Below, piece after piece: positions 6,774 to 62,786 of a stretch of 64,000 nt of DNA. Position 1 is the first letter of the stretch, and each line of letters begins with the position of its first letter. The position numbers and the translations under genes were made by a program. The notes beneath the pieces were generated by a model. That model had not been told where the DNA came from and searched no databases. It worked only from the letters and a program-made list of their open reading frames with translations. This DNA is from an uncultured Verrucomicrobiae bacterium (lineage in GTDB: Bacteria > Verrucomicrobiota > Verrucomicrobiia > Chthoniobacterales > UBA10450), in assembly GCA_963772365.1 (NCBI GenBank), contig CAVYXA010000003.1, forward strand, positions 1-64,000, in the 5' to 3' direction.

Positions 6774-7586
6774 ATGAATGCCAGGATCGACAAGTACATT
6801 TCGGTCTTCAACATCGGGCTGCAAAACACTTTCGTGTATCGCTGGAATTATTTCCTGCGCGCGCTCTTTGGGTTGATCCCGCTCGCGGGAACGGTTTTTC
6901 TCTGGAGCGCGATTTTCAAGGAACGCGGCGGCGGCCTGCACGGCTACGATTACGGGTCGATGATCTATTATTATTTGCTCACGATTCTGGTGAGCAATCT
7001 CGTCACGCCGACCGAGGACGAATGGCAAATCGCCGCCGACATTCGTGAAGGTCAGATCAACGCGCTCCTGACCAAGCCGATTAGTTATCTGGCCTATCGC
7101 TTCAGCATTTTCCTGAGCGGCCGGCTGGTTTACACGTTCGTCACGCTGCCGCCGATCGCGCTCATCTTCATCTATTTCCGCCATTACATCACGCCGCCGG
7201 AACACGCCACGACCTACCTGGTGGCGACCATCTCGATGGTAATGTCAGCGCTGATTCAATTTTTCATCACCTACTCGCTGGCCATGATGGCGTTCTGGAT
7301 TCTCGAGATTTCGACAATCGTTTTCATCGTTTACTCGTTCGAATATTTTCTCGGCGGCCAGATGTTTCCCATCGACATCATGCCGGCCGGAATCCAGGCG
7401 GTGATGAAATGGCTCCCGTTTTATTACGAGCTCTTCTGTCCAATCGCCATTTTTCTCGAGCGCCTCCGCGGCGCCGCGCTCGTGCAAGCGCTGGCGATTC
7501 AAACCGGCTGGCTTCTGGCCGCGTGGGCCTGGGCACATTTCATGTGGAAACGCGGCCTCGGTCATTATCAAGCCGTAGGCGGATAA
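6774..7586 (+). CDS. ABC-2 family transporter permease
   Basis: Multi-TM protein, IREGQINALLTKPISY, ends YQAVGG. Confidence 0.85.
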   Translation: MNARIDKYISVFNIGLQNTFVYRWNYFLRALFGLIPLAGTVFLWSAIFKERGGGLHGYDYGSMIYYYLLTILVSNLVTPTEDEWQIAADIREGQINALLTKPISYLAYRFSIFLSGRLVYTFVTLPPIALIFIYFRHYITPPEHATTYLVATISMVMSALIQFFITYSLAMMAFWILEISTIVFIVYSFEYFLGGQMFPIDIMPAGIQAVMKWLPFYYELFCPIAIFLERLRGAALVQALAIQTGWLLAAWAWAHFMWKRGLGHYQAVGG

Positions 7587-7619
7587 GCTTGGCGGTATCA
7601 GATCAGATTTGAACCCTGA

Positions 7620-8021
7620 TTACAGACTCGCGCGCAGGGTTTTTACATGCGGGTAAGCAAGAATCAAATCATCCGCCGTGAGTAGCGTCAGCTTTTCCAA
7701 GCGCGCAGTCGCCACTCATACACGATCGGCTGGATCACTGTGGAAGTGACCGGGCAACTGATATGCTTCCCAGGCAATCTCGTGCGTTAGCGTCAATGTA
7801 AGTGCATGAAGATTGCCAAGCGAAAGGTCTTTCCACTGCGGAAATGGATGTTTGAACCGCAAGCGATCTGCCTGCATCATGCGCGCGATCTCAAATGTCG
7901 AAATTGCCGACACGAATCGTTCCTGGGTAAGATCGTTTAACGCGCGCCGGGTCTGGTGTCCAAGTCGCTCTGGAGACTCCTGACTCCAGATCCAGACATG
8001 CGTATCGAGCAAGTACCTCAC
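7620..8021 (-). pseudogene. vapC: VapC/PIN toxin with in-frame TGA at 7716-7718
   Basis: LLDTH...SAISTFE...HSDPADRV-stop-VATARLEKLTLLTADD; the frame continues to TAA at 7620. Confidence 0.8.
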
Positions 8022-8245
8022 TGCTCGATAAAGTCCTTGTCCAGATCGGATCGAATGATGTCGCCTTTGATTTCGATCCACCCCTTCAAACCTCCGAGGA
8101 CGCACTTATCGCTTGGCGCGATCGGTTCGACACGAACCATGGGTTCGCCGCGCAGGGTCACTACAATCGGCCTCTTTGTTTTTTTTACGTCCTTGAGCAT
8201 TTGGATGCACTTGGCCTTAAACTCAGAGATGAGGACTGTCTTCAC
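8018..8245 (-). CDS. Phd/YefM family antitoxin
   Basis: ISEFKAKCIQML...PIVVTLRGEP; overlaps the toxin start (GTGA). Confidence 0.85.
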   Translation of the reverse strand: MKTVLISEFKAKCIQMLKDVKKTKRPIVVTLRGEPMVRVEPIAPSDKCVLGGLKGWIEIKGDIIRSDLDKDFIEQ

Positions 8246-8252
8246 GGCTTAA

Positions 8253-8281
8253 ATTCTAACCTGGTCAACTGACTAGGTCAA
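8253..8281 (-). promoter_or_regulatory. Sigma70 promoter with palindromic operator for the TA operon
   Basis: TTGACC-17 bp-TAGAAT on the minus strand; inverted repeat CCTGGTCA-AC-TGACTAGG at 8260-8277. Confidence 0.7.
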
Positions 8282-8337: not shown

Positions 8338-8489
8338 TCTGTCCAATCGCCATTTTCCTCGAACGCCTCAAAGGCGCCGAGCTAATCCAAGCGTTGTTGA
8401 TCCAAACCGGCTGGCTCTTGGCCGCGTGGGCCTGGGCACATTTCATGTGGAAGCGCGGCCTCGGTCATTATCAAGCCGTCGGCGGTTAG
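8338..8489 (+). pseudogene. Diverged duplicate of the 3' 152 bp of the ABC-2 permease (7435-7586)
   Basis: Direct alignment: 19 mismatches in 152 bp, no indels, ends YQAVGG-stop. Confidence 0.9.
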
Positions 8490-9193
8490 AATTGGGGACC
8501 GGGGGCGTATGCTGCACATCCGCTGCTGCAATTGACGGCGCGCCCGTCGAACGGACTGGCGCTGTTTGCACACACCCCAAAATCCAGCAGCGAACCGTCT
8601 CCATCGATTCGGACGAACCACTTACAGCCAGCGCAATTTCCAGTCTTTGGTTCTGACACAGGAGTGCCCCAACGCTGCGCAATTGCATCTGCGCGATCAA
8701 ACATCGCTGCCTCTTCGGCCATCATTCCAGATCCTCTCCCATCCCCGGCATACAATCGGCCGCTCTCACATGACAGCCAACTGTTATTCGGCAACCGAAT
8801 GTTCCACTGAGGATCACCCGAAACCATGACCATCGAGCGCAAACGAAGACCGTTCGAGAAATCGAGGATGAGCTCGGGCACCGCTCCGAAGACAGAAATA
8901 TTTTCTATCTTTGTTCCTCGGAGGCCGCTGACACCCTTTTCGATTTTCGGTCGGCTATTCGAGCTTCCATACAATACTTTCGATGCCTCTTCGACTCTCC
9001 AGTCCCATTCGAAGAAGATGCAAGCTTCCCCGCACTGGTGATGCCGTCCTTCCTTCAACGGAGCAAGCCGACCCAACTCTAGAAAGATCGCTGAGCCGTA
9101 ACCTTTCCATGGAAGTGACACGCAAAGTCCTAACAACGGACGAACAAAATCGTCGAACTGAGCAATCGATATTTCAGTTCGGTGGTTTGTCAC
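8486..9193 (-). CDS. Hypothetical protein with C-terminal DUF3027-like Cys motif
   Basis: CAGCKWF...FGVCANSASPFDG...SGC. Confidence 0.65.
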   Translation of the reverse strand: MTNHRTEISIAQFDDFVRPLLGLCVSLPWKGYGSAIFLELGRLAPLKEGRHHQCGEACIFFEWDWRVEEASKVLYGSSNSRPKIEKGVSGLRGTKIENISVFGAVPELILDFSNGLRLRSMVMVSGDPQWNIRLPNNSWLSCESGRLYAGDGRGSGMMAEEAAMFDRADAIAQRWGTPVSEPKTGNCAGCKWFVRIDGDGSLLDFGVCANSASPFDGRAVNCSSGCAAYAPGPQF

Positions 9194-9515
9194 TTGGTCG
9201 TCGATAAGCTGACTGCTTTCCAGGCTTTGAAGCCGCCGGCCATGGAACGGACGTTCTTGCAGCCCATTTTTTGCAAACTCTCGGCGGCGAGCGCAGAGCG
9301 GCCGCCGCCACCGCGGTGACAGATGATCGTCATCTCGCGATCGGGAAATTTGTCTTCGACCTCCAACTCGAGCATTCCGCGGCTGATGTGGACCGCATCG
9401 GGAATGTGCGATTCATCGAATTCATCTTCGCCGACATCGACAATCATCGCGCCGCTGCTCTTTGCCTTGGCGGCGGCTCGGTCGGCCAAATCACGGTGAT
9501 TTCCTTCTTACGCTG
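9190..9515 (-). pseudogene. Rhodanese-domain gene remnant (5' truncated, active-site Cys replaced by Arg)
   Basis: IVDV, HIPDAVHI, ICHRGGGGRSALAA and MAGGFKAW; no proper start and an N-terminal indel. Confidence 0.75.
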
Positions 9516-9528: not shown

Positions 9529-10827
9529 TTATTTTACGGGCGAGCCGGCTATGGCCCGCAACCCAAGTATCGTGACCTTGTGATGATAGCTGTGTCCATG
9601 ACCGCTGTCATCGTGAAGGACGGAGTGAAGTTTGTAGCTCAATGTCCCGGTAGTGGCATTGACTGGCTTGTCATATTTCAAAGTGTCTATCCAAACGCCA
9701 ATCTCCCTCACATGGTGATCATCGCATGGATAGTGCAGGTCCCAGCCCGTGAGCATTGGTATGGCATAGGTGTAGGGAATATTGTCGATGATAGCCTCTT
9801 CGGTTTTTTCACCCGGCGATTCACCAAGACAGGCTCCAAAAAACCCCGTGTCCTCGACCGGTAGAATTGAAAAAGGCGGCTGTATTACGGCCACATCGGG
9901 GCCACCCATCGCCGAGACCAACTCGCCGAGCCTGTAACCCCTCCTTGCATCATTGTCCTTGAAAATCGCGCACGTATTCCAACTCACAAAACCCGAATCG
10001 ACGCGTCCGGTGGGAGGCGGGCTCGACAAAGGGTCAAGTATGTCTTCGGCTTTTTGGTAAGACTGGTGCTGAACGAATGTCTCGCTGGGCCCCAGATTGT
10101 AAGCGATCTGAAGTAAGTGATGATCGTCTTCCCCCGTCCAATCGAATCCGAATCCTCGCGGGAGGACGGCTACGGACTGATTAGGTTTAAAATTGTCGTT
10201 CTGAAGAAGAGTGGGAAAACAAGTGAGTGCAGTTGAAGTACCCTTGTTAGGGGCAGAAAAGAAATTATCCGAAGCACTGGGAGATCCGCCCCCCTTGCAA
10301 AAGGAATCGGCATCGCCGTGATCAACAAAAGCGCGGAGATTGGCATCGTTCCACGCAACCACGGTGAAGTGGTAGCGCCAGGCGATCGATTTATCGAAAT
10401 GATCGTCCGCCAGGATGCCTGCCGCGTTCCAAGTTAGCTTCCCTTCTCGTCCGGTTCGGTCCAGCTTAATTTTCCCAATCAATGTCGCCACGACTGCAAC
10501 GTGATGGTCTGAGCTATAATTTAGTTTCCAGCCGTTGAGAAACACTGTTGCCTGATTGGCGTACGCGGGAACTGCCACACTTTGCTCCACTTTGATAAAT
10601 GCCTTGTTGTGGATCTCGGCGGAGCCCGAACCCTCCATCACCTTAATGGTTCCCGGATCTTCAAAAACTGTTGTTGGCGGATCGCTCGAGACTGGTGTCA
10701 ACGGCAAACTGTTGATTAGCTGACAAATCTCGTCGTGCGGAGGATGGTACTGGCACCCGCTCGGAAGGATGAGCAAACAGACTGTTGCAACAACGGTAAT
10801 AAGACTTGTGAGTGGCTTTATCTTCAT
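9529..10827 (-). CDS. Hypothetical lipoprotein with three DHH-containing repeats
   Basis: PSGC lipobox-like site; repeated G(W/F)...DHH motifs. Confidence 0.7.
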   Translation of the reverse strand: MKIKPLTSLITVVATVCLLILPSGCQYHPPHDEICQLINSLPLTPVSSDPPTTVFEDPGTIKVMEGSGSAEIHNKAFIKVEQSVAVPAYANQATVFLNGWKLNYSSDHHVAVVATLIGKIKLDRTGREGKLTWNAAGILADDHFDKSIAWRYHFTVVAWNDANLRAFVDHGDADSFCKGGGSPSASDNFFSAPNKGTSTALTCFPTLLQNDNFKPNQSVAVLPRGFGFDWTGEDDHHLLQIAYNLGPSETFVQHQSYQKAEDILDPLSSPPPTGRVDSGFVSWNTCAIFKDNDARRGYRLGELVSAMGGPDVAVIQPPFSILPVEDTGFFGACLGESPGEKTEEAIIDNIPYTYAIPMLTGWDLHYPCDDHHVREIGVWIDTLKYDKPVNATTGTLSYKLHSVLHDDSGHGHSYHHKVTILGLRAIAGSPVK

Positions 10828-10913: not shown

Positions 10914-12131
10914 CTATTCGTAGCGCAACGCTTCGATAGGATCGAGCTGCGCTGCTTTACGGGCAGGGTAGAAGCCGAAGAAGACGCCTACGGCTGCGCT
11001 GAATAAAAACGCGATCACGATCGAACTTAGCGAGATCAGGGTTGGCCATTGGGCGTAGATCGACAATATCTTCGATGCGCCGATGCCGCCGATGATTCCG
11101 ATAATTCCGCCGACGGAACTGAGGGTGACCGCTTCGATTAGAAACTGCGTGAGAATGTCGCTTCCGTGGGCGCCGACAGCCATGCGGACGCCGATCTCGC
11201 GCGTCCTCTCGGTTACGCTCACGAGCATGATGTTCATAATCCCGATACCGCCGACTACGAGTGAGACGCCGGCGATCGCGCCGAGCAGCATCGTCATCAC
11301 CCGCGATGTCGCGGTCGCTGTCTCAGCGATTTCCTGTTGCGTTCGCACGGTGAAATCATCATCACGGCCGGGCCGAATGTTATGCCGCTGTCGCAACAAA
11401 GCGGTAATCTGTTGTTGGGCCGCGCTCATCTCACTGGCGCTGGCGACTTGAACATCGATGCCGCGAAGTGTGGTGCCGCCAAGAACGCGTTTCATCGCGC
11501 TCGTGTATGGAATGACGACGATGTCATCCTGATCGACTCCCTGTGGGCTCAAGCCTTTGCTGGTGAGCAGACCGACGATCGTAAATGGCACGTTCTTAAT
11601 GCGCAATGTTTGTCCGATCGGATCTTGATTGCCGTAGATCTGCGCTGCAGTGGTGCGTCCAATCACGCAAACTTTGTTTGCGCTTCGCACATCCTGCGGA
11701 GTGAACGGCACACCTTCGGCCAATGGCCATCCGCGAATCTCAAAGTACTCAGCGGATTCCCCGTAGATACGTGTGAACCAGTTTTGATTTCCGGCTGCTA
11801 CCTGTGTGGTCGAGATCACTTCTTCGCTTACCGCTGTGACGCCCGGGACCTCGCGCTGGATCGCTTCCGCGTCTTCGATCTTCAGCGTGCCGGCGCTACC
11901 CCAGCCAGTGTGGATCCCGCTCGACGTTGTGCTGCCGGAAAAAATGAGAATGACGTTTTCGCCGAGACTGGCGATCTGCGCTTCGACCTGTGCTTTGGCG
12001 CCGTTGCCAATTCCGACCATTGCAATCACTGCGCCGACGCCAATGATAATGCCGAGCGCGGTAAGAACGGAGCGCATCTTGTTACGCCGCAATGCCCGGA
12101 AGGCGACGTTAAATGTGGGCGCAATTCGCAT
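10914..12131 (-). CDS. MacB-family ABC permease
   Basis: RSVLTALGIIIGV, GGIGIMNIMLVSVTERTREIG and LDPIEALRYE motifs. Confidence 0.95.
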   Translation of the reverse strand: MRIAPTFNVAFRALRRNKMRSVLTALGIIIGVGAVIAMVGIGNGAKAQVEAQIASLGENVILIFSGSTTSSGIHTGWGSAGTLKIEDAEAIQREVPGVTAVSEEVISTTQVAAGNQNWFTRIYGESAEYFEIRGWPLAEGVPFTPQDVRSANKVCVIGRTTAAQIYGNQDPIGQTLRIKNVPFTIVGLLTSKGLSPQGVDQDDIVVIPYTSAMKRVLGGTTLRGIDVQVASASEMSAAQQQITALLRQRHNIRPGRDDDFTVRTQQEIAETATATSRVMTMLLGAIAGVSLVVGGIGIMNIMLVSVTERTREIGVRMAVGAHGSDILTQFLIEAVTLSSVGGIIGIIGGIGASKILSIYAQWPTLISLSSIVIAFLFSAAVGVFFGFYPARKAAQLDPIEALRYE

Positions 12132-12902: not shown

Positions 12903-12904
12903 AG

Positions 12905-14098: not shown

Positions 14099-14109
14099 TA
14101 ATCAAAGAT

Positions 14110-14205
14110 TGTCATTCTGAGCGTAGCGAAGAATCTCAAATCATTTGGTTCGAGGAGTTCATCAAGACCAATGATCAGAGATGTTTCGCTTCGCTCAACA
14201 TGACA
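14110..14205. repeat. REP-like inverted pair, GTCATTCTGAGCGAAGCGAAGAATCTC family
   Basis: Arms at 14110-14137 and 14178-14205. Confidence 0.85.
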
Positions 14206-14258
14206 ATGGGTCATTCAAAAATCCGGCGTCATCTCGTGCGAGTTGACTTGTTCATCAT

Positions 14259-14289: not shown

Positions 14290-14312
14290 TCTGTCTCAAT
14301 TGGTATCGTTTT

Positions 14313-22519: not shown

Positions 22520-22593
22520 GCGCCCGTAGCTCAGCCGGATAGAGCAACGGATTTCTAATCCGTCGGTCGGGTGTTCGAGTCACCCCGGGCGCG
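22520..22593 (+). tRNA. tRNA-Arg(TCT), CCA not encoded
   Basis: Acceptor stem GCGCCCG/CGGGCGC, anticodon arm ACGGA-TTTCTAA-TCCGT, GTTCGAGT T-loop. Confidence 0.93.
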
Positions 22594-22633
22594 CTTCGCT
22601 CTGAACTGGGGTCGACAATCGCAGGCGAGCCGA

Positions 22634-23140: not shown

Positions 23141-23234
23141 TCATCGCGCCGTATTCCCGACCTGTTTTCTTTCGTGTTCGAGCAACCATTTCTTGCGCCA
23201 CAATCCGCCCCCCATATCCGCACAGTGTCCCATC
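23141..23234 (-). pseudogene. Orphan 3' end of an ada/ogt gene
   Basis: DGTLCGYGGGLWRKKWLLEHER-KQVGNTAR-stop, with one extra G in a homopolymer; matches ada 28427-28492. Confidence 0.88.
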
Positions 23235-23406: not shown

Positions 23407-26238
23407 TTACTGTAAGGTTACGCGATTAGATTCAGGCGGGATCGCATTTCCCGAGCGTGATTTCACCAGCACCACGTCCGAGGCGCTGATTGCTCCATTG
23501 AGAGTCACATCCTCGCGGAAATTAGTCATATTCACCGATGTGCCCGCCTGCGCTTTGGTTTGGGCAATGTCGGAAGCGTTAACAGTCTTATCCCCTGAGG
23601 TGTCTCCAATCAGCATGTTTATATCCACCGCCTTATCCGGCAATATTTGAGAAAAGCTGTCGGTCACATTGCTCAGGGTAACTGTAATTTTCTGCACATC
23701 CGCAACGTCGGTCAGATTCACAGTCATCGTATTGTCAACGAATACCGGACTTCCCGCGACGCTGCCTATTCCGGTTGTAACGGTTGCGTTGCCGCTCACG
23801 ACGGTGTTGCTAAATGTAAAGACTAACGTGTGATTTCCACCGCTTGATCGGCATTCCACACCCGGTTGACCTGGAATTAGAAGATGAATATCGAACGGTC
23901 CCAATCCACCATGGATCTTGCGTGAAACGCCATCGGTAAGTTGCAGCGCAGGGCCGGCAGCAGCACTCAAGTTTAAGTCAATGTTACCCGCACCATCATA
24001 GCTAAAGGTGCCGGTAAACCCTGCGTTGGTGATAGTCCATGATGCCTCACCACCGGGATCGGCAGCGAGACCCGTAATGATGGCATCATACATACCAGGT
24101 TGCACGCCGGCGTCGAGAAAGGTGAAGCGTTGATTGGGAGCAAAGGTCCAGGTTCCCCCTGTTCGGGCCAAAGTTGAATGCGCGCCGGGAGCACCCAGTA
24201 CAAGCTCGATGATCGAACCGGAATTGAGCGTAAGGTTATTTGCCACATTTAGAGAACCACTTGCGGTGGTCGCATCGCCGCCCAAGAGAGCGGCGCCTGA
24301 GTTGACCGTGACCGGGCCGCCGATCGTGCTGATGCCGCCGAGTACGCTGCCGGTGTTGGTCACCGTTACCGCTCCGCTGCCTGTGCCTGAACCGGTGAAG
24401 TTATTGGCCAGGAGCCTGCCGCCATTAACCATCGTGCCTCCGGTATAGGTATTGGCGCCGGTGAGCCGCAACGTTGCTGTGCCGACCTTCGTAAACGAAC
24501 CTCCTGTGCCTCCGCCAACGCCGCCATCCTGCATTATTCCGGAAAAGATCGTAGTTAGGTTCGTGATGCCTGAGATTAGGTTCCCGCCACCCAGGAAAAT
24601 ATTTCCATTGTCCTCGATCGAGCCGACCGTCACGGCCCCTGAGCCGCTGGTGTCGAAATTGCCGGTGCCGAGAAGTTCGAAGCGCGACGACGCGGTAACT
24701 GGGGCGAAACTACTATACTGAATCGAACCGTCATTAGCGATCAGCGTTCCGCCGGCGATTTGGGTGCCGCTGCCTCCACCATTGAGCTTAACGACCGAGC
24801 CGGCCAGCGCCTGAATCGTGCCATTGGTGTTGGTGATATTGAGGGAACTAAGGTTGAGGGTCGAACCATCGGAAGCTTGCAGTATTCCATTATTGACGAA
24901 GTCACCGACAGCATCCGCTGGTCTAACGGTAGCTCCATTGCTAAGGTTCGCGTTGACCACTCCATTGTTGGTGAAGCGCAGCGATGGCTGCAGGCTAAAG
25001 CTGCCCTCAAGCGTCATGCTGCTGCCGAGCGTGAGCCGTTCGCCGCCGTTCTGGCCAACGATCTGATTCTGCTGCGTGTTTGAAGAAGCAATAACGCCCG
25101 CTCCGGTAATGGTCACATCGTTTTCCATGCGCAGGGTGGTGGTGTTGGGATTGGAGCTCAGCATTAGCACGCCGTTGTTTGTCAACGTCCCCATGAGTTG
25201 CAACGTCGTGAAATTCGGGATATTGAGAAAGCCGGTGTTAGTCAGATCCTGAAGCGTCGCGATGTCGAACGGTTCGATCACGCCGCCGCTGCCCGTCAGG
25301 TCCGCGGTAGTAAGTGTCCCGCCGACGATCATCGGATTATTGCTGAGACTAACGAATGAGCCGGCTAGCGCCTTGATCGTGCCGTTAGTGTTCGTGTAAA
25401 TTATGTTTCCGCCGTTTCCGCTGTTGTGTAACGTGAGTGTGGCGCCATTGGAAGCTTGCAGTGTCCCGTTGTTGATCGATCCGGCGGCGGTGATCGGATC
25501 GAGCGTCATTCCCTGGCTTACGTTCGCGTTAAAAATTCCATTGTTGGTAAAACTCATGTTCCCAAGCGTCAAGCTGCCTTCGATCGTTTGGCTCGCGCCG
25601 ATCGTCAGCCGCTCCGTGCCATTGTCTCCGACGAGGCGGTTGCCTATAACATTCGATCCAGAAAGCGTACCTGACCCGTTGAGTGTTACATCGCCCGTGA
25701 TGTTCAGGTTCGTGACGTTACCAACCTGCGACTGGTTAATCGTGATGGTGCCGTTGTTAGTCAGCGTCGGGGTTTGAATATGAAGAGTGCTGACATGATT
25801 CACCATGATCAGGCTCCCGGAATTATTCGTGATGCTTCCGGCCTGGAGAAGGTTGTTGTCGCCGCTTGGGATCGCGACGGTGCCGCTGTTGGTGAATGCC
25901 CCGCTCGTCGTCATCGAATTAAGACCGGTGAACAAAAGCGTCGCGTTCGGATTATCGATCGTGAAGAAACCGATATTGGGCGAAGCGTTGAGTGTGATCG
26001 TGTAGGTGGCGGCGCCCGGTACCGTGCCCGAATCGCCGGGGTTAAGCGGTACGCCCGTGGGCGACCACTTCGTCCCATCACTGTAATTGCCGCTCGTCCC
26101 AGTGAACCAGGTGTACGCGGTGTCGGGCGCTGCGCTCCACGTCGCGCTGCCGGCAAAGGAGGATATCGTTGCGCCTAAGAAGGCGAGCACGGTGGAAAAA
26201 AGCGCGAGCGCGTTGTTTTTCTTTACTGTTAGTTTCAT
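23407..26238 (-). CDS. Secreted beta-helix/adhesin-like protein with autotransporter-associated beta-strand repeat and C-terminal dockerin-like domain
   Basis: TKVGTATLRLTGANTYTGGT; GDTSGDKTVNASD and DVTLNGAISASD repeats; signal peptide. Confidence 0.85.
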   Translation of the reverse strand: MKLTVKKNNALALFSTVLAFLGATISSFAGSATWSAAPDTAYTWFTGTSGNYSDGTKWSPTGVPLNPGDSGTVPGAATYTITLNASPNIGFFTIDNPNATLLFTGLNSMTTSGAFTNSGTVAIPSGDNNLLQAGSITNNSGSLIMVNHVSTLHIQTPTLTNNGTITINQSQVGNVTNLNITGDVTLNGSGTLSGSNVIGNRLVGDNGTERLTIGASQTIEGSLTLGNMSFTNNGIFNANVSQGMTLDPITAAGSINNGTLQASNGATLTLHNSGNGGNIIYTNTNGTIKALAGSFVSLSNNPMIVGGTLTTADLTGSGGVIEPFDIATLQDLTNTGFLNIPNFTTLQLMGTLTNNGVLMLSSNPNTTTLRMENDVTITGAGVIASSNTQQNQIVGQNGGERLTLGSSMTLEGSFSLQPSLRFTNNGVVNANLSNGATVRPADAVGDFVNNGILQASDGSTLNLSSLNITNTNGTIQALAGSVVKLNGGGSGTQIAGGTLIANDGSIQYSSFAPVTASSRFELLGTGNFDTSGSGAVTVGSIEDNGNIFLGGGNLISGITNLTTIFSGIMQDGGVGGGTGGSFTKVGTATLRLTGANTYTGGTMVNGGRLLANNFTGSGTGSGAVTVTNTGSVLGGISTIGGPVTVNSGAALLGGDATTASGSLNVANNLTLNSGSIIELVLGAPGAHSTLARTGGTWTFAPNQRFTFLDAGVQPGMYDAIITGLAADPGGEASWTITNAGFTGTFSYDGAGNIDLNLSAAAGPALQLTDGVSRKIHGGLGPFDIHLLIPGQPGVECRSSGGNHTLVFTFSNTVVSGNATVTTGIGSVAGSPVFVDNTMTVNLTDVADVQKITVTLSNVTDSFSQILPDKAVDINMLIGDTSGDKTVNASDIAQTKAQAGTSVNMTNFREDVTLNGAISASDVVLVKSRSGNAIPPESNRVTLQ

Positions 26239-26375: not shown

Positions 26376-28310
26376 ATGGGAAAAGCAGCTGACAAAAGTT
26401 TTGTTTTTGCCGAGTTCAATCTCCACGCCGAACTGCGAACGCTTCAACGCAAGGGCGCGCCCATTCACCTCGCGAAACGACCGTTTGATGTTCTACTTTT
26501 CCTGATTCAAAATCGTGAGCGAGTAGTCAGCCGCGAGGAATTGCTCAATCGGTTTTGGGGCGGACACCAGGTTTATGACGACGCTTTGAGAAAATGCGTC
26601 GGCACGATTCGGACGGCGTTGGGCGATTTGGGAAAATCGCCGCGCTTTATCGAAACCCGTCGCGGAAGCGGTTTTCGTTTTATCGGCTCGGTATCGGAAG
26701 CGCCTGCCTTTGTGGAGAGGTTAACTCCGAGTCAATTATTAGTTAGCAATTACAAAGTAGAAAACCAAGAACCACGAACAAAGAACAATGGAAATGAGCG
26801 AGAAAAACAAACCTCAGAATTCTCGCTTAAGAATCGCAAACTTCCTTTCGTTGTCGTTACCGCCGTTTTAATCTCGCTCACGGCTCTTGGTTTTTTCGCG
26901 TATCGCCGCCAGGTAACATCTGTCGAACCGAAGACCTTAGCTGAAGCGGTTTCGGCCAGGCGTTCGATTGCGATTTTGCCGCTTAAGAATCTAACCGGCG
27001 CCGCCGCAAATGATTATCTTTCCGACGGCATAACGGAAAGTTTGATCAACGAACTTTCGCGTATCGGATCGCTCAAAGTCATCTCGCGCAGTTCCGTTTT
27101 TCAATTCAAAAATAAAGAGGCGCCGCCCCGGGAGATCGGAGAAAAACTTGGCGTGGAAACGATTCTCGAAGGTGGTCTGCGTGAGAGCGGCGATCAGGTT
27201 CGCGTCGAGGTGCGGCTGGTCAACACAAAGGACGGGAGTGTGAGGTGGGCGAGCGATTCCGAGCAGAAAAAACTGGCCGATATTTTTGCAATTCAAGACC
27301 GCATCACTTGTCAAATCGTCACCGAATTGAAAGTAAAACTCTGCGGCGACACCGTACCAACCTCGCGCTCCACCCAGAACATCAAAGCCTATCAACTTTA
27401 TCTGCAAGGATTGTATCAGCGCAATCAACTCACGAAAGAGAATCTGCAAAAAGCTATCGAATTTTATGAAGAAGCCCTGCGCGTCGAACCGAATTACGCC
27501 TTGGCGCATGATGGTCTGGCAGAGGTCTACATGGTGATGGAATTCAATTCGCTCGTTCCGCCCGGAACAGCCGCGCCAAAAGCCGACTTTCATGCGCAGA
27601 AAGCTCTGGAATTGGATAGTTCGCTCGCTGGTCCGTACATCGTTTTGGGGGCGGTCCGGACGATGCAGAATTACGATTTGAAGACGCGTGAAAGTTATTA
27701 CCGCCAAGCGTTGCTCAAAAATCCGAACCACCGAACGGCGCATCTTTGGCTGGCAAATAATCTTACGGTACAGGGAAAATTCGAGGAAGCCGAAAGGGAG
27801 ATTCTTCGCGTGCAGGAGCTCGACCCGCTTTCCTTCGGCGTGAGAATGCACTTATCGGAACTTTATTATTATTGGCGCAAGCCCGACCAATCAATCGAGC
27901 AAGCCGAACTGATGCTCGCCGCCAACCCGGAAAATAAAGGCACATACAGTTTTCTGGCCAAGGCTTACGCGCAAAAGGGCGAATTCGATAAAGCCTTTGC
28001 CGCACTGGAAAAAAATCCAACCGACGATATTAATCGCGTTTACATTCTGGCCTTAGCCGGACGCACGGCCGAAGCGCGAAACATCACCGAAGCCGTTGCC
28101 AAATCGGAGGCCGGAAGCAAGAACCCGTATTGTGTCGGCGCGATGTATGCCGCGATCGGCGAACGCGAAAAGGCGTTGGCGTGGCTCGAAAAATCTTACG
28201 TGATGCGCCAAGCCGATCTAGTTTCAATGAAAATTGATCCGCCGCTCGATAACTTGCGGGATGATGAACATTTTCGAGATCTGCTGCGGCGGGTTCATTT
28301 GACGGAATAA
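26376..28310 (+). CDS. CadC/OmpR-type winged-helix regulator with TM, TolB-like and TPR domains
   Basis: FIETRRGSGFRFIG, SIAILPLKNL, YLSDGITESLI and TPR repeats. Confidence 0.88.
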   Translation: MGKAADKSFVFAEFNLHAELRTLQRKGAPIHLAKRPFDVLLFLIQNRERVVSREELLNRFWGGHQVYDDALRKCVGTIRTALGDLGKSPRFIETRRGSGFRFIGSVSEAPAFVERLTPSQLLVSNYKVENQEPRTKNNGNEREKQTSEFSLKNRKLPFVVVTAVLISLTALGFFAYRRQVTSVEPKTLAEAVSARRSIAILPLKNLTGAAANDYLSDGITESLINELSRIGSLKVISRSSVFQFKNKEAPPREIGEKLGVETILEGGLRESGDQVRVEVRLVNTKDGSVRWASDSEQKKLADIFAIQDRITCQIVTELKVKLCGDTVPTSRSTQNIKAYQLYLQGLYQRNQLTKENLQKAIEFYEEALRVEPNYALAHDGLAEVYMVMEFNSLVPPGTAAPKADFHAQKALELDSSLAGPYIVLGAVRTMQNYDLKTRESYYRQALLKNPNHRTAHLWLANNLTVQGKFEEAEREILRVQELDPLSFGVRMHLSELYYYWRKPDQSIEQAELMLAANPENKGTYSFLAKAYAQKGEFDKAFAALEKNPTDDINRVYILALAGRTAEARNITEAVAKSEAGSKNPYCVGAMYAAIGEREKALAWLEKSYVMRQADLVSMKIDPPLDNLRDDEHFRDLLRRVHLTE

Positions 28311-28411: not shown

Positions 28412-29470
28412 TCAGTTTCTGAATCTTCGCTCGTGTTCGAGCAGCCATTTTTTGCGCCACAAACCGCCGCCATAACCGCACAAGGTTCCATCGGCACGAA
28501 TGACGCGATGGCAGGGGATGACGATGCAGATCATATTCTGACCATTTGCCCGGCCCGCGGCTCGCCGCATCTCGGCATCGCCTAACTGTTTCGCCATCCA
28601 CGAATACGAGCGCGTTTCGCCCACTGGAATCGAGCGCAAAATTTTCCACGCCCGGAGTTGAAATGGCGAGCCGACCGGCGCTAGCGGAACATCAAACTCG
28701 AAACTTTTTCCGGAGAAATAATCGGCGAGTTGCGAGCGCAACGTGTCGAGATGTCGATGTTCGCCCGGCACGATGTTCGTTCGCAATCGTGCCCGCAAGA
28801 TCGACAGTTCACTCTCAGTCGCGCGCCGATCGATGAACTCGAGCAAGCGCACCCCCTCATCATCCGACACCGCGATCATCGGCCCAAGCGGCGTTTCAAT
28901 CCGCTGCGCAAACAAACCGGTTTGCGCCTTCGCCACGGAAGGTGCTTCGCCAAACATTTTCGTGAACGCCTCGCGAAATCCGCTTTCGGAGCCGAATCCG
29001 CTGCCGTTTCTAGCTTGATCGACCCGGCTACCTCGACGGACTTCCCGCAACGCGAGCCCAAGTCGGCGGGCGCGATGATAAGCCTGAAAGGTCATTCCAT
29101 AGTGGCGCTTAAACTGTCGCCGCGCAGTAGACGGATCGATCGACATCGACAGGAGTTCCTTATCGGTTAATCGTCCGCCCGGTGCGCGTTCCACTTCGGC
29201 GCGCAGTCGTTCGATCAGCAGCGGGGGCGGCGCGGTCGGATCTAGTGGGTGACAGCGCAAGCAAGGGCGATATCCCGCGTCCAGCGCTTCGCTCGGCGAA
29301 GCAAAGAAATCGACATTTTCCCGCGCGGGTTTTTTGGCTGAACACGTTGGCCGACAAAAGGTTCCAGTCGTCCGGACGCCCACGCAGAAGATTCCTTCAA
29401 AACTGGTGTCCCGCTTGACTAGCGCGCGATACATCGTTTCCGGCGGCGGAAGAAGATCGAGAGTTTTCAT
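28412..29470 (-). CDS. ada: Bifunctional Ada regulator / O6-methylguanine-DNA methyltransferase
   Basis: FCRPTC...CLRC Ada Zn site, AraC-like HTH, IPCHRV active site. Confidence 0.93.
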   Translation of the reverse strand: MKTLDLLPPPETMYRALVKRDTSFEGIFCVGVRTTGTFCRPTCSAKKPARENVDFFASPSEALDAGYRPCLRCHPLDPTAPPPLLIERLRAEVERAPGGRLTDKELLSMSIDPSTARRQFKRHYGMTFQAYHRARRLGLALREVRRGSRVDQARNGSGFGSESGFREAFTKMFGEAPSVAKAQTGLFAQRIETPLGPMIAVSDDEGVRLLEFIDRRATESELSILRARLRTNIVPGEHRHLDTLRSQLADYFSGKSFEFDVPLAPVGSPFQLRAWKILRSIPVGETRSYSWMAKQLGDAEMRRAAGRANGQNMICIVIPCHRVIRADGTLCGYGGGLWRKKWLLEHERRFRN

Positions 29471-58083: not shown

Positions 58084-58086
58084 GTC

Positions 58087-58857
58087 TTACTTTAATTGTT
58101 TGAGATAACGGATGATCTCTTCCACTTCTTCATTCGTGAGGACAGGCTCCGGCATCACGTCGTCGTAACCGAACACGATCTTCGCGCTCGGTTTTAAAAT
58201 GGCTTCTCGAAGATACCCGTCATCGGCGGTAACCACCGATCCGTCAGTCATTTTTTCCGGTCGTCCATAAATTCCTTTGAAGGTAGGTCCAATGCTCTCC
58301 TCACCGTTGATGGAATGGCAGGTAAGACAGTCCTTTGCATCCAGAAGATGGTAAGCAGGGTTAATCGGCTGCGTTGGCGCCGGCCTGGATGGCTGAGCGC
58401 TGAAACTTTTTCGGTCCAGCACACGCAACGCGGCGGCCATGCGATCATGACCAGTTCCGCAAAATTCGTGGCAGAGAAGTTGATAAACGCGCGGCTGATC
58501 GAACCTCACTCGCGCATAATTCACGACTCCGGGAACGGCCATGAGATTTAGATTCGTGCCCAGCAAAATCATGCCGTGGGTCACATCAGCCGCGCTGAGG
58601 TAAACATCGACTGTCGATCCTGCGGGGATGGTCACGTTTTCCGGCTCGAACTTCCACATGCGTGCCACGTAATGAATTTCGTAATGGTTCGGCGAGTGCG
58701 TGATGACTTCGCCTTTTTGGAACGGCTTGATATCAGTGAGACAGGTCGGCAAACCAACGTGAAATAGATTGATCGCCAGAGCGGCGAGACCCAGAAGAAC
58801 CAGAGCGAACGCCGCCGAGATCCAGATGATCCGCTTTTCCAGTTTGGTAGCTGCCAT
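58087..58857 (-). CDS. cbaB: ba3-type oxidase subunit II with fused cytochrome c
   Basis: HG...CHEFCGTGHDRM CuA site, CLTCH heme motif, single N-terminal TM. Confidence 0.88.
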   Translation of the reverse strand: MAATKLEKRIIWISAAFALVLLGLAALAINLFHVGLPTCLTDIKPFQKGEVITHSPNHYEIHYVARMWKFEPENVTIPAGSTVDVYLSAADVTHGMILLGTNLNLMAVPGVVNYARVRFDQPRVYQLLCHEFCGTGHDRMAAALRVLDRKSFSAQPSRPAPTQPINPAYHLLDAKDCLTCHSINGEESIGPTFKGIYGRPEKMTDGSVVTADDGYLREAILKPSAKIVFGYDDVMPEPVLTNEEVEEIIRYLKQLK

Positions 58858-58861
58858 CGCG

Positions 58862-58993
58862 TTAGCTTCGCGCAATCATGACTAAATAAATGACAAGCCA
58901 GAGTGCTGCATAAAAGAAGAGCAAAAGCACAAAGAAGAAAATTGCGCCGCCGGGGAAGAATGGCTTCTCATTCTGTCGGTCGCTCGGTTCCAT
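58862..58993 (-). CDS. ba3-type oxidase subunit IIa-like (43 aa; not in the ORF track)
   Basis: MEPSDRQNEKPFFPGGAIFFFVLLLFFYAALWLVIYLVMIARS, single TM directly upstream of subunit II. Confidence 0.75.
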   Translation of the reverse strand: MEPSDRQNEKPFFPGGAIFFFVLLLFFYAALWLVIYLVMIARS

Positions 58994-58997
58994 CACA

Positions 58998-60536
58998 TCA
59001 TTTTTCCAGCTGTCGAAGTTTGAGATAAATCGCAAGCATAAGAAGGCCGATCAACGCGATACTAACGGCCAGCCCGATCTGTCGATATTTGTATTCATCG
59101 CGGGCCTTTTCGACCAGGACGGCGGCGCGCGTAGCTGCTTCTTCGGCGGGAGCGGCGACCTGTTGGAACGTGTTCCGGCTAAACGAATGGACGTAAGTAC
59201 GCGATTTCTTCAGGCCATCTGTGAGATCGGTTAACTGGTTATTGATCGGCTCGATGTCCAAGCCTTTGGCCGCAAGTTTGTCGGAAACTTCGGTGAGATG
59301 GTTTCGTGCTTCGTCCATGCGAGTAATTGTCTCTCGAAAGTAATCTGCGGTGGCAATGCATTCGGGATTGTGCTTGGCGAATTGCCGGTGGCAATCGCCG
59401 CATAATGACCCGGATTTTGTCGCCAGCATGGAATCATGCGTCTTCATAATGGCGTGATTACCGTGACATTTGCTGCATTCAGGCCAGTTATGCTGATCGA
59501 ATGCCTGTTTGTGCTTGCTGCCGTCGAACAAACTCGCGTTAGCCGAATGACAGAGGCTGCAACTGCGACTCACCGACGCCACGCCCGGAGGAATGGCTGC
59601 GTGGTTTCCGTGACAATCATTGCAGGCCGGCGCGCCCAGATCGCCGCGTTCGAGCAAGGCGCGCCCGTGGACGCTTGTTTTGTATTCGGCCAACTGATTG
59701 ATGGGAAGGGGCGAACCATCCGGAAGAGCAAACCCGGCCATTATTGTATGGTTAGAATGACACGCGCCGCACGTTTCCGGCACTCGTTGTGGATATACCT
59801 TCGACAACGGATCCTTGGCCGGACGAATCCCGTGAACACCATGGCAACTTACGCACGTTGGCGCCCGATCGTCATGTTTTACCAAAAGCAGTTGGCCATG
59901 GGGGCTGTCTTGAAACTTTGCCAGCTGATCCGTTGGCAACGATTGATCGAACTCGTGCATCAAAGCCGGATCGGAATGGCATCGTGCGCAAAACTGGACA
60001 ACCCAGGCGCGATTTTTCTGACGGTCCTTCTCCGGCCACTCCTTTACGAAAGCGTGACCGAACGCGGCGGTGGAATCGCCGCCGTGACATCCAGCGCAAG
60101 AGATCCCGCGGCGAAAATGAACATCTTCGACGACCTCTTTCAGGTTCATGAAGGCGGGCGAATGTTGTGACTCTGGCGTCGCGGAAAAGAGGTCTTCCGG
60201 CGACTGGACTTCCGAATCGCTGTGGCAAAGAACGCAATTGTTTTGCAGGAGCAGTTCCATCTTTTGTGGACGCAGTTGCAACGCCAGCAGCATCGACAAA
60301 TGCTCCGGTCGCGTAACGACATCGTTCTGCACGGCCTGGCCGAGCAGCTCTTTCAGATGATCGTTGAGTCCGTCGAAATAAGCGCGTTGCTCCTGAGTGA
60401 TAATCGGTTTGCCCTTGGCATTTTTCGCAGCAAACAGCGCCGCCAGTTTGGACGGCATTGCAGCTGATATTTTTTCTACGGGAAGAGCCGTAGTGGAGAT
60501 CAACAACAGGCCGACCAAGATCGAGATCGTCTTCAT
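58998..60536 (-). CDS. Nonaheme cytochrome c with C-terminal coiled coil and TM anchor
   Basis: Nine CxxCH motifs; signal peptide; ATGA overlap with cytochrome b. Confidence 0.88.
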   Translation of the reverse strand: MKTISILVGLLLISTTALPVEKISAAMPSKLAALFAAKNAKGKPIITQEQRAYFDGLNDHLKELLGQAVQNDVVTRPEHLSMLLALQLRPQKMELLLQNNCVLCHSDSEVQSPEDLFSATPESQHSPAFMNLKEVVEDVHFRRGISCAGCHGGDSTAAFGHAFVKEWPEKDRQKNRAWVVQFCARCHSDPALMHEFDQSLPTDQLAKFQDSPHGQLLLVKHDDRAPTCVSCHGVHGIRPAKDPLSKVYPQRVPETCGACHSNHTIMAGFALPDGSPLPINQLAEYKTSVHGRALLERGDLGAPACNDCHGNHAAIPPGVASVSRSCSLCHSANASLFDGSKHKQAFDQHNWPECSKCHGNHAIMKTHDSMLATKSGSLCGDCHRQFAKHNPECIATADYFRETITRMDEARNHLTEVSDKLAAKGLDIEPINNQLTDLTDGLKKSRTYVHSFSRNTFQQVAAPAEEAATRAAVLVEKARDEYKYRQIGLAVSIALIGLLMLAIYLKLRQLEK

Positions 60537-61920
60537 GTCGGATTGGTCCGATTGCGCTCGGAGCTCACGAAATGCGAAACTAAAATGGCAAAGGCCGCTA
60601 TGGCGATTGAGATAACGCCGGCGACGAGATAGGAAAGGCCGATAAAGCCGTGCAGAATGACCTGCAACAGCGCCGCTCCAGTTAAAACGAACCAGTGCTG
60701 TTGGAAACGCCAGTAGCGGATTACAATTACCACGATGCCTGCCGCCAGTGTCCATGACGCGCAGACAACTGCGATCTTGTGCATCGAACCCAATTCATCG
60801 GCAGCACTTCCGGAGGCGCCGATGTCCCAGCCCATTAACGTTAGGTAAGTTAGAAACAAGATCGCAGCCCAAGCCAGATCGCTGAATGCGGGGGACCGTT
60901 TATCGTGATAAGCGCGTCGGTCCAGCCATGGAATAATGGCCCAGATGCCAAAGAGAATTCCGATCAGGAATAGGCAAACCTGCGGACCTTCGAGACCAAA
61001 AAGGTGGGGCGGAAATTCCTTCAGTAGTTGATACTCCCAAAGGAAATACCATTCCGGCTTTATGCCCGGATAAGCCGGCGCAAAAGGATCCGCTTTTTGG
61101 CCCATCTCCCAATCCATTCCCGGGATTCCTGGTCCGTAGGGAAGGAAAACGGCCAGGCCCGCGAGAATCATCAGGCAAGCCAACCACAGCAGGACATCGC
61201 GCAAGGCGAAGCTGGGAAAGAATTTCATCCCGCGTGGAGCATCTTTTTCGCCGAGTGGCGGAGCCATTCCCTGCCGTTGAATCAGAAGCAAGTGAAGTCC
61301 GATGAACGCAACAAAAGCAAGTGGCAAGATCACCACGTGGGCCGCGAAAAACCGATACAGCGTGTTGATAGTAACGTCTTGCCCACCGCGCAGAACTTGC
61401 AGGAGCCAATTTCCGAGGAATGGCACCGAGCGTACGATGTTCGTCCCGACGGTTGTCGCGAAATAGGCGAGCTTGTTCCAAGGCAACAGATACCCGGAAA
61501 AGCCGAATCCCATCGTCAGTAAAAAAAGAAAATAACCGGAAACCCAGGTGACTTCCCGCGGCGGCCGGTAAGCTTTCAGCATCATGGTGCTGAACATGTG
61601 AAGCACCAGCGAGATGATCATCAGGTGCGCGCTCCAACTGTGGATGGAACGAATCAGCCAGCCGAACGGCACCTTGGTCGTTAGGAAACGAATGCTCTCA
61701 TAAGCAGTCGCTTCGCCGGGCTGATAGTACATCAGCAGCAGCACACCAGTGATCACCTGGACCACGAAGAAGAACATGGTGATCCCGCCCAGATAGTACC
61801 AGCCCATCCAATGCGAGCCGATTGGCACTTCCTTGTGACGCAGGAATTCGAACAACGGCGTTAGTTGATACCGCCGATCGAGCCAGCCGCGTAGCCCGCG
61901 AACGTTCTCGAAGTTCGTAG
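60533..61920 (-). CDS. Cytochrome b of a Rieske/cytb complex (start unclear)
   Basis: GWLIRSIH, GYLLPW, four heme-ligand His and PEWY. Confidence 0.88.
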
Positions 61921-61922
61921 CT

Positions 61923-62390
61923 TTAGGCTCTTTCTTCAGAAATGACGATTCCACCGTCTGGTTGTTTTTGGACTGCGTACTTGGGCAAAGAGCGAGGCGG
62001 CGGCCCGGACAGGACACGGCCGCTCAAATCGAAGCGCCCATCGTGACACGGGCACCAAATGACAGACTGCGCCGGTTGAAACGTGACCGTGCAACCTTCA
62101 TGCGTGCACTTGGCGCTGAAAGCGTGCAGTTGGTCACCGGCCTGTAAAACGATTACGCGCTGCCCGCTCACCGGAACGATCACATATTTGTTTTGCTCGA
62201 GCTTCGAAGCCTCATCGCGGTTCAAGCGCGTCGGTCCGGTCGGACCCGTTTGCGGCAGCGGTTTGAGATAGCGAATGATTGGATATGCAATGCTGGCGAG
62301 CCATCCGAGAACGCTGGCACCGAGCAGAACATCGAGAAAATGACGACGCGAAGTTATCGGAGCCGAGTTCGTCGTCGCTGAATCCTCCAT
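61923..62390 (-). CDS. Rieske 2Fe-2S subunit
   Basis: SRRHFL Tat motif, CTHEGC, CPCHDG and GPPPRSL. Confidence 0.92.
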   Translation of the reverse strand: MEDSATTNSAPITSRRHFLDVLLGASVLGWLASIAYPIIRYLKPLPQTGPTGPTRLNRDEASKLEQNKYVIVPVSGQRVIVLQAGDQLHAFSAKCTHEGCTVTFQPAQSVIWCPCHDGRFDLSGRVLSGPPPRSLPKYAVQKQPDGGIVISEERA

Positions 62391-62544
62391 GTCAGATTCT
62401 CCGAATCGAACTAGCGGAGTTCGTCATCGCTTCGCATCATGAACAGTTTCGTATAAAACGACTCCGCATTTTTTCGGAAAAATTCCACCGTCTTCTGAGT
62501 AAAAGGCAGAGGATAGATTGCAATCGGGATCGGGAGCTTTCGCG

Positions 62545-62786
62545 TCAATTCGCCTGTTCTTTTGACAAATATCTGTGGATACCAGCAGCGGTTTTGCGGC
62601 TGTCGCGAACTGCGCGCACAACCAAGTCGGGTCCGCGCACCAGATCGCCTCCTGCAAAACGCCGGGCACACTGGTCATTTGGTTTTCATCGACAATGACG
62701 CCGCCCCACTTGTTGCCTTCGATGTTATCGGAATTGCCGGCCGCGAAGATTGGAACGGCATCGAATCCGTAAGCAATCAGGACGTC
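62545..62786 (-). pseudogene. Orphan 3' end of a GltD/SudA-like oxidoreductase
   Basis: DVLIAYGF...VDENQMTSVPGV(frameshift)FAGGDLVRGPDLVVRAVRDSRKTAAGIHRYL; no N-terminus. Confidence 0.8.

Follow-up and report, generated by a model that had tools for sequence, protein, structure and literature searches.

Displaced gene ends behind housekeeping genes of a soil Verrucomicrobiota bacterium as possible scars of one-sided homologous integration

We wanted to know how gene fragments consisting of a 3' end and a stop codon come to lie at the edge of accessory genes in the genome of an uncultured Verrucomicrobiae bacterium (G000; GCA_963772365.1). The window analyzed here is the stretch of 64,000 nucleotides at positions 1 to 64,000 of contig CAVYXA010000003.1, in which a preliminary description had listed four such stand-alone gene tails, from an ABC-2 permease gene (gene A), a rhodanese gene, ada, and a gltD-like gene. 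All four proved to be real fragments (Table 1), but only those of gene A and ada are displaced tails, the rhodanese and gltD-like fragments being what is left of the 3' parts of broken genes that lack an intact twin.

Two displaced tails and two gene remnants in the window

Table 1. Features of the window that bear on the gene fragments and their cargo
Position	Strand	Feature	Remarks
6774..7586	+	Gene A (ABC-2 permease), anchor and intact parent	Pfam ABC2_membrane_6
7435..7586	+	Left copy of direct repeat, the 3' 152 nt of gene A	88% to 8338-8488
7620..8015	-	Cargo PIN (VapC-type) toxin gene, interrupted by in-frame TGA	Pfam PIN
8018..8245	-	Cargo Phd/YefM antitoxin gene	Pfam PhdYeFM_antitox
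8338..8489	+	Orphan 3' tail of gene A	Codons 221-270 plus TAG
8486..9193	-	Accessory ORF, weak DUF3027 match	Pfam E 3e-8; overlaps rhodanese stop
9190..~9510	-	Resident rhodanese gene	5'-truncated and frameshifted
9529..10827	-	Insert between macB and rhodanese, accessory gene of 432 aa	No Pfam hit
10914..12131	-	macB-like permease	Pfam MacB_PCD/FtsX
22520..22594	+	tRNA-Arg(TCT)	Faces ada tail
23141..23234	-	Orphan 3' tail of ada	1-nt frameshift
23407..26238	-	ada cargo: 943-aa secreted protein	Pfam PATR and dockerin-like matches
26376..28310	+	ada cargo: 644-aa winged-helix/TPR regulator	Pfam Trans_reg_C, TPR
28412..29470	-	ada, intact parent	
62545..62786	-	gltD-like 3' remnant, frameshifted	Spans about codons 419-496 (gene of 499 aa)
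62783..64000	-	One copy of a 1397-bp duplication (runs to C3:64179)	Cytochrome c tail plus 279-aa gene

The two displaced tails share an anatomy that the preliminary description had reported correctly, in that each has its intact parent upstream on the same strand with cargo in between, and differs from it chiefly at synonymous sites. At gene A, the tail (8338-8488) matches its parent (7435-7585) with 88% identity over 151 nt, the TAG stop codon occupies 8487-8489, and the differences comprise 12 synonymous and 6 non-synonymous ones; the Phd and PIN genes lie between the copies, and the match to the PIN toxin gene over C3:7668-8015 contains one TGA. The position of gene A behind pdxA is kept across the related loci of the family, and homologues of the Phd/YefM antitoxin sit behind gene A in three of them (L086, L113, and L118). 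The accessory ORF beyond the tail had no match at the 100 related loci searched. At ada, positions 23172-23234 match 28431-28492 (86% over 63 nt) and the frame reads through to a TGA at 23143-23141; all 8 differences are synonymous (0 non-synonymous). The cargo separating ada from its tail measures 5.2 kb, and the downstream neighbours of ada are different in G001, G017, G021, and G137. A tRNA-att origin of the ada cargo was rejected, the 3' end of the tRNA-Arg being present once in the window, and Rfam returned the tRNA alone.

The rhodanese gene is a conserved single gene at the equivalent locus of relatives, where the macB-like permease gene adjoins it. In the window, roughly its first 13 codons are gone where it adjoins the 432-aa insert, which has no match at the corresponding place in relatives, and the source genome holds neither an intact nor a close twin (best blastx 30%). 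The macB-like permease gene is likely to have been the anchor of this insertion. The source genome likewise lacks an intact gltD-like gene, of which just two parts exist, a head piece at C3:331683-332054 and the tail in the window; this remnant abuts one copy of a 1397-bp duplication, the second copy of which lies at C3:339404-340800 (97.8%).

Displaced tails across the source genome

Genome-wide, we found 12 clean tail loci, with tails of 68-182 nt and cargo of 258-7372 nt that often consists of toxin-antitoxin genes, which corresponds to a scar density of about four per megabase. The repeats are 82-95% alike (73% in the related genome G141) and end at the stop codon, and the anchors are 12 unrelated housekeeping genes, including ispH, pfkA, thrS, glf, ald, and ada. 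The bracketed segments cover about 1% of the genome and contain 4 of its 5 HicA matches and 3 of its 13 PIN matches; the cargo of the 12 loci also includes one methylase, and integrase families are absent from the cargo genes scanned. Of the 15 tail genes in the initial set, C3:781398 (a tandem REP-like repeat) and DDAH (part of the pfkA event) were removed, leaving 13 for the synonymous count, after which the ECF sigma tail (a tandem repeat beside a Y1 transposase, with 1 difference) was also removed to give 12; thiC, which has two fragments downstream, was excluded from the tail count.

Tails and parents differ synonymously at 94 of 132 positions of difference, versus 23% expected (13 loci), and 5' heads and their parents at 34 of 57. 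Because the differences are mostly synonymous, the tails appear to be alleles from other lineages, and the codon comparison indicates that tail and parent diverged as such in different lineages. Local duplication followed by decay, or misassembly through the mixing of strains, is scarcely credible as a source of these repeats. Some short repeats are indeed tandem copies beside REP-like repeats (C1:1171237 and C3:781294), and frameshifts are numerous in the G000 assembly, which also has foreign tips of high GC; however, a duplicate decaying neutrally is excluded by the synonymous bias, independent assemblies show equal anatomy, and copies that are 73-95% alike would be poor substrates for a mis-join.

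Among single-copy parents, the fragments comprise 13 tails downstream, 5 heads upstream, 2 tails upstream, 3 heads downstream, and 3 internal pieces (this count keeps C3:781398 and DDAH and omits ald, thiC, and ECF as multi-copy). A sensitive genome scan returned no opposite-strand match, and therefore the same-strand pattern exceeds chance. The idea that 3' ends in particular serve as landing pads is not supported, since 5' heads occur upstream as well and the 3' bias is moderate (13 tails versus 5 heads, p=0.096). The excess of tails is probably due to promoters being left intact when DNA is inserted behind a stop codon. Scar density differs among genomes, with 3 in 0.8 Mb of G001 and none in the 1.2 Mb sampled of the 3.5 Mb of G137 (one 24-nt borderline match; P about 0.008 at the G000 rate). 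A uniform density throughout the family was rejected on the empty 1.2 Mb of G137, and a repair defect behind the high density was rejected on the presence of recJ and mutS in all five genomes. The mutS gene of G000 is split, like many genes of the assembly.

With regard to machinery, the preliminary description had stated that the window contains no integrase or transposase, and Pfam indeed found no such family among the 78 window ORFs scanned. It had also suggested a search of the genome for competence genes and orphan recombinases. G000 carries comEC, dprA, comM, and YraN, together with two Ku genes and ligD; the competence genes attest capacity, not use. Matches to recombinases exist as well, but none of the 8 tyrosine-recombinase and 9 Y1-transposase matches falls inside the window.

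Junctions at gene A in related genomes

Tails of gene A occur in 7 of 146 related loci and start 37, 45, 69, 100, 135, 152, and 363 nt before the stop codon. This count leaves out G092, G119, and G154, in which the tail is on another contig or far away, and G125 (98%), whose tail is probably a strain variant. As anticipated, cargo at this locus is variable, with empty sites and differing cargo among relatives. The variation in tail starts speaks against a fixed att site, and the likeness to protein-gene att sites suggested in the preliminary description is therefore not supported. Integrase-driven islands also target and restore protein genes, with a displaced 3' fragment marking the island end, and PMC4383910 presents a regenerated target with a displaced fragment as their hallmark. 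An integrase acting in trans or since lost might be sought among the 8 tyrosine-recombinase matches of G000, but we consider this origin highly improbable: gene A alone has seven start points and no fixed crossover point, the 12 unrelated targets revealed no shared junction motif when checked by eye, the scanned cargo is free of integrase families, and the tRNA-Arg end is unrepeated.

The polarity of the event can be read in G141, where three sources meet. Its flanks (mostly 82-96%) and orphan (90-92%) resemble one clade, the body of its intact gene A resembles a second clade (92-94%), and the intact tail plus cargo resemble a third source (92-100%). The foreign tail starts at about -395, and the orphan begins downstream of this point, at -363. 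This comparison indicates that the orphan is the old resident end, that the intact gene was imported, and that the crossover occurred upstream of the orphan start; the switch from background to foreign DNA inside gene A is that of a one-sided homologous crossover. The earlier proposal that a foreign gene tail with cargo restores the resident gene thus holds for G141, but does not extend to the rhodanese and gltD-like genes, which are not restored. About 30 or 340 nt were replaced in G141, and tail loci retain the resident end without an insert-sized deletion in the recipient; the rhodanese case, unlike the tail loci, does delete recipient DNA.

In L109, an 11-nt segment in which donor-type downstream DNA matches gene A position -100 at 10/11 bases lies exactly at the join, although chance alone also produces 10/11 matches elsewhere between the same sequences (0-5 in each comparison of 300 x 400 nt). 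In L052, the DNA past the orphan is that found directly behind intact gene A in close relatives (95-97%), and the gene looks mosaic, with a switch from intact-like to orphan-like near -60 when compared with its nearest relative L057, but an ambiguous pattern against L054. Close pairs with different downstream DNA are more diverged in the last 120 nt (0.867/0.905 versus 0.922/0.940; 43 and 27 pairs). G141 is the one locus that provides polarity, and L109 the one that provides microhomology at the join.

Such mosaicism would be expected of a Campbell-type event, in which a linear donor tail plus cargo is circularised (by Ku/LigD) or excised between repeats and enters by one crossover in the shared tail, leaving both copies mosaic. 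The L052 switch relative to L057 fits a circle equally well, G000 has two Ku genes and ligD, passages of PMC2935791 use a circular intermediate in a model for rhs loci, and passages of PMC3240628 report that 56 of 60 E. coli clones obtained with one-sided-homology DNA formed by this route, with 109-950 bp duplications. We nevertheless regard this route as unlikely, since the orphan of G141 has resident-type sequence right from its start and the foreign part of the intact gene begins upstream of the repeat, and since the L052 pattern is ambiguous against L054.

At gene A of the window, relatives (the nearest 85-87% identical) agree with the intact gene at 8 codons and with the orphan at 3 codons, and are too distant for polarity. 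In 5 of 6 hosts, the distance to relatives is slightly greater for the orphan than for the intact tail, as would follow from a mirror event in which a donor anchored in the far-side gene brings its own copy of the tail. Such a copy would not be long enough for a second crossover, and the orphan would then be imported and the bracketed cargo older. The resulting anatomy would be identical, the short tails would be accounted for, and G154 does carry a gene A tail with cargo 367 kb from its intact gene. However, decay of an orphan likewise lowers its identity to relatives, and the mirror event is excluded for G141; we consider it very doubtful as a general account.

A proposed route and its known counterparts

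Overall, the anatomy of the loci and their junctions suggests that the tails are probably scars left when DNA from related bacteria was integrated through homology on one side, by homology-facilitated illegitimate recombination (HFIR) with the join inside the anchor gene. Donor DNA, presumably taken up by natural transformation, would cross over by homology into the resident gene, in a step that may be RecA-dependent, and would supply a new gene end plus whatever lies behind it in the donor. The far donor end would then be attached, by way of a few matching bases, at a site that also lies within the resident gene, perhaps by D-loop processing or Ku/LigD, and the old gene end would thus be left behind the cargo. 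A join past the anchor stop codon would leave no repeat and might cut the next gene, as is likely for rhodanese, and homology at both ends would allow tail and cargo to be exchanged without a scar. Most tails are under 200 nt, which the HFIR reading leaves unexplained.

The process had been presented as possibly undescribed, but it has been described, as HFIR, long target duplication, and rhs/T6SS displacement. According to passages of PMC3240628, HFIR in S. pneumoniae, A. baylyi, and P. stutzeri combines a homologous crossover at one end with 3-10 bp of microhomology at the other and is rare in the laboratory. The loci described here resemble it in lacking a recombinase and, in G141, in the homologous crossover on one side, and HFIR hosts are competent; classical HFIR products, however, usually delete about 1 kb, whereas here a join inside the anchor gene leaves a repeat, as read from genome sequences rather than experiments. 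For rhs loci (PMC2935791) and T6SS effector-immunity arrays (PMC5361080), passages of the two papers describe C-terminal displacement, with HFIR or a circle proposed; as here, an incoming piece pushes the old 3' end downstream, fragment length varies, and no integrase is involved. Their tips are dissimilar and confined to toxin loci in those passages, whereas here the anchors are housekeeping genes, the new tail is an allele equivalent to the old one, and the cargo follows the stop codon, unlike an rhs/CDI-type polymorphic toxin with non-homologous tips.

Long target duplication at restriction-modification genes, as given in passages of PMC2853133, places selfish cargo between unique direct repeats of about 45-420 bp without a mobile element, mostly in competent species. 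The G000 loci likewise have unique direct repeats >30 bp, an insert <20 kb, and no mobile element, but restriction-modification cargo is limited to one methylase among the 12. In rows of the table in that paper, the repeats are 93-100% alike and are read as target duplications, whereas those described here are 82-95% alike, show a synonymous bias, and end at a stop codon. Small toxin-antitoxin islets without mobile elements are treated in passages of PMC13617665 as TA-only intervals, and core genes on either side are proposed to be where homologous recombination spreads them. That route is a two-sided replacement, and the term 'direct repeat' occurs 0 times in the main text, the passages concerned reporting no gene-tail repeats. 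The literature searched, which covered few subscription papers, contained no fitting genome-wide account of such tails.

We think it likely that these loci show HFIR acting throughout the genome and not a machine dedicated to capture. A dedicated and efficient pathway for one-ended integration in these soil Verrucomicrobiota, in which for example ComM-YraN cuts the displaced strand close to where homology ends or Ku/LigD seals the product of a one-sided invasion, would make any conserved gene end a landing pad and would be the main route by which toxin-antitoxin genes spread without mobile elements, but this is quite unlikely. On the HFIR reading, a recombination route that is rare in the laboratory would have left scars at ordinary housekeeping genes of a wild soil bacterium, providing a concrete way for small genes, toxin-antitoxin pairs among them, to enter chromosomes with neither an integrase nor a transposase. 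Donor, recipient, and junction could be read from the pairs of old and new gene ends, making the mechanism of integrase-free gene gain testable on population genomes, and gene 3' ends that hitch-hike with the adjoining cargo may mislead gene trees.

Orphan gene ends in the window

The preliminary description had read four C-terminal gene fragments in the window as displaced gene ends; half of the examples (ABC-2 and ada) fit, and rhodanese and gltD, which have no intact twin or parent, do not. The ABC-2 fragment is a diverged copy of the last 152 nt of the intact upstream gene on the same strand (gene A), separated from it by 752 nt of cargo containing a Phd/PIN pair with an internal TGA in the toxin gene, and the ada fragment is a diverged copy of the last ~81 nt of its intact upstream gene, also on the same strand, with 5178 nt of cargo in between. 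In relatives, rhodanese is a single gene located between gene A and macB; the copy in the source genome (G000) has lost ~13 codons and has no twin in the genome, and a 432-aa gene lies behind macB. At locus L104 of a relative, macB behind rhodanese is reduced to its last 44 codons, with the macAB operon lost; like the rhodanese case in G000, this is a remnant of the deletion type.

G000 has no intact gltD parent: codons 24-149 lie at C3:332 kb and codons about 419-496 in the window. The gene is found at high identity in the relative G021 and also in 3 out of 18 further genomes of the family. The window piece adjoins a 1397-bp duplication (97.8% identity; cytochrome c tail, 100%, and a 279-aa gene), the second copy of which lies 9 kb away from the head piece. 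Only behind this distant copy do resB-ccsA, a HigB pair, and the gltD head follow, in that order. We infer that a block was duplicated or moved with reciprocal loss, or that this is a misassembly, the context of the duplication suggesting a moved 9-kb block or misassembly. Genes for Rieske, cytochrome b, multiheme cytochrome c, COX2/COX1-like, and SCO proteins also lie together in the window and apparently form an accessory respiratory module.

In line with the preliminary description, no integrase or transposase family matched any of the 78 window ORFs scanned. A REP-like repeat family has dozens of copies in G000, and nine Y1/RAYT-type transposase matches in this genome all lie outside the window.

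Coordinates of features in G000 (window positions unless a contig is named) and in relatives
Feature	Position	Strand	Remark
Gene A, intact ABC-2 permease	6774..7586	+
ABC-2 fragment	8338-8489
Rhodanese fragment	9190-9515
ada fragment	23141-23234
gltD-like fragment	62545-62786
REP-like repeat members	14104-14210, 14310-14400, 18143-18233, 44898-44973, 54350-54439		dispersed ~95-bp family
Respiratory gene cluster	55667-63624
1397-bp duplication	62783-64000		partner within C3:331683-340800
High-GC contig ends	1 to ~4750; C1:1-60000; C3 last ~55 kb
Phd/PIN pair at cas4-cas1	C1:94092-96761
pfkA event	C1:384963-394239
thiC locus	C1:709200-716431
Methylase paralogue	C3:742588
L037, double gene A tail	G036:C5:108100-108530
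L162, gene A tail plus cargo	G154:C3:428770-429005

Tails and heads across the genome

The G000 assembly (3.35 Mb in 6 contigs, 55% GC), in which the window forms the beginning of contig C3, is from what we take to be a Udaeobacter-like soil verrucomicrobium. The high-GC contig ends (67-73% vs 54-55% elsewhere) look foreign and are likely chimeric joins with another organism. Many genes contain frameshifts, and gene starts are approximate because genes were called with a hexamer model of our own.

All G000 genes of at least 300 nt were compared with the genome, and partial copies were kept if they were unique, lay outside coding sequence, and were no more than 20 kb away. Same-strand 3' parts lying downstream accounted for 16 matches in 15 genes; a further 2 had the 3' part upstream, and 6 and 5 had the 5' part upstream and downstream, respectively; 10 internal pieces were on the same strand and 3 on the opposite strand (2 of them in a foreign tip). 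When 2183 genes were scanned again with a seed-based method, the same classes, taken in the same order and ending with the internal one, contained 16, 6, 9, 11, and 3 genes, and no piece was on the opposite strand. In the union of both scans, single-copy parents had 13 tails (orphan 3' ends) downstream and 2 upstream, 5 heads (orphan 5' ends) upstream and 3 downstream, and 3 internal pieces; therefore, the geometry of displacement, with a tail behind its gene or a head ahead of it, predominates in G000. As for a 3' bias, tails do not significantly outnumber heads (13 vs 5; p=0.096).

Setting aside one case that depended on another and two that were tandem repeats leaves 12 clean tail loci (ispH, pfkA, UDP-galactopyranose mutase, heptosyltransferase, transglutaminase-like, aldehyde dehydrogenase, isocitrate/isopropylmalate dehydrogenase, ABC-2, ada, thrS, DUF885, and an MFS gene). 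The bracketed-tail feature is real and genome-wide. In the mostly open-access literature searched, we found no genome-wide census of housekeeping-gene tails. In the congener G001, 0.8 Mb contained 3 clear tails and 1 head, and 1.2 Mb of the relative G137 contained none (one 24-nt borderline match in the second scan); therefore, the density of such scars is lineage-dependent.

Tail and parent differ mainly at synonymous sites, as first noted for two of the fragments. Because 94 of 132 differences over 13 loci are synonymous (23% expected) and only 3 indels occur, the two copies must have diverged under selection as working alleles rather than as a decaying local duplicate.

A HicA or PIN match occurs in 5 of the 12 clean-locus cargos, and, across the whole genome, brackets formed by a tail or a head enclose 4 of 5 HicA and 3 of 13 PIN matches. 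The thiC locus is stacked: behind the gene come two successive fragments of thiC itself, one of ~370 nt (81%) and one of ~150 nt (73%), and PIN/DUF433, HNH, and EcoO109I-like genes are interspersed with them. In the pfkA event, the pfkA tail, spacer, and next gene were displaced, the last surviving as head and tail remnants; its cargo includes a methylase with a paralogue beside another HicA pair. At a distance of 1 kb from the ispH/HicAB tail locus there is a further Phd/PIN pair, flanked by cas4-cas1 on one side and by an orphan copy of the cas4-cas1 5' head on the other.

Gene A in relatives and the direction of events

Cargo had been expected to vary among relatives, and it does: the DNA behind the gene A stop differs among the listed genomes of 20 family genomes, and the distance to rhodanese ranges from 4 to about 3700 nt. 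The survey covered 146 loci where gene A is complete, representing 138 distinct sequences; downstream DNA of at least 1 kb was available for 120 of them and of at least 5 kb for 63. Its own tail lies downstream in seven (start in nt before the gene A stop): G000 (152), G002 (37), G036 (69; two tails), L052 (135), L109 (100), L115 (45), and G141 (363). By eye, the L115 cargo reads as a putative ParE/Phd-type pair. The two G036 tails belong to a tandem unit of 198 bp that carries a palindromic repeat, and could reflect either a genuine second round or a slip in the assembly.

Among close gene A pairs (92-99.5% alike in the gene body; not independent), divergence over the last 120 nt is greater where the downstream DNA differs than where it is the same. 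G015 and L059 are 98% identical in the body and 84% in the tail, with unrelated downstream DNA and no orphan; clean tail-plus-cargo swaps are common and orphans a minority outcome.

The G141 orphan, the DNA that follows it, and the upstream flank all match a single clade, and the intact gene body matches a second. For the last ~395 nt of the intact gene, nothing in the comparison set exceeds 78%; a tail-plus-cargo block in G154, however, is 92-100% identical to the final 240 nt together with 2.5 kb of cargo. That near-identical block (L162), with Lnb_N-domain cargo, adjoins fumC, 367 kb from the intact G154 gene A. Because the orphan is resident-type from its first bases at -363 and the foreign intact-gene end spans ~395 nt, the old gene end was displaced, with the crossover upstream of the repeat. 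Simple one-crossover integration of a circle does not produce this arrangement.

At L109, 58 nt of cargo equal the start of the DNA behind gene A in another clade, and, at the return point to gene A (-100), donor-type DNA and gene A match at 10 of 11 bases. At L052, close relatives have the empty site, and the repeat looks mosaic against one neighbor and not against another. For the window gene A, distant relatives lean slightly against displaced-old-end polarity (8 vs 3 codons).

A likely mechanism and its known counterparts

The displacement most likely reflects a duplication-leaving form of homology-facilitated illegitimate recombination (HFIR). HFIR has one homologous and one microhomology end, deletion being usual, and re-circularized linear DNA integrates in E. 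coli via one crossover, duplicating 109-950 bp (PMC3240628). Restriction-modification genes are described as selfish cargo that is flanked by long unique repeats and involves no mobile element (PMC2853133; supplements may hold diverged repeats), and TA islets are thought to spread via recombination at flanking core genes (PMC13617665). Old 3' ends are known to be displaced at rhs loci (PMC2935791) and in T6SS arrays, HFIR having been proposed for the latter (PMC5361080).

The competence genes sought are present in G000 (comEC, dprA, comM, and YraN), together with two Ku genes, ligD, recJ, and mutS; this set shows capacity rather than use. Set against these known processes, the analysis adds a census, evidence that the copies are alleles, the polarity of one event, and the junction of another.
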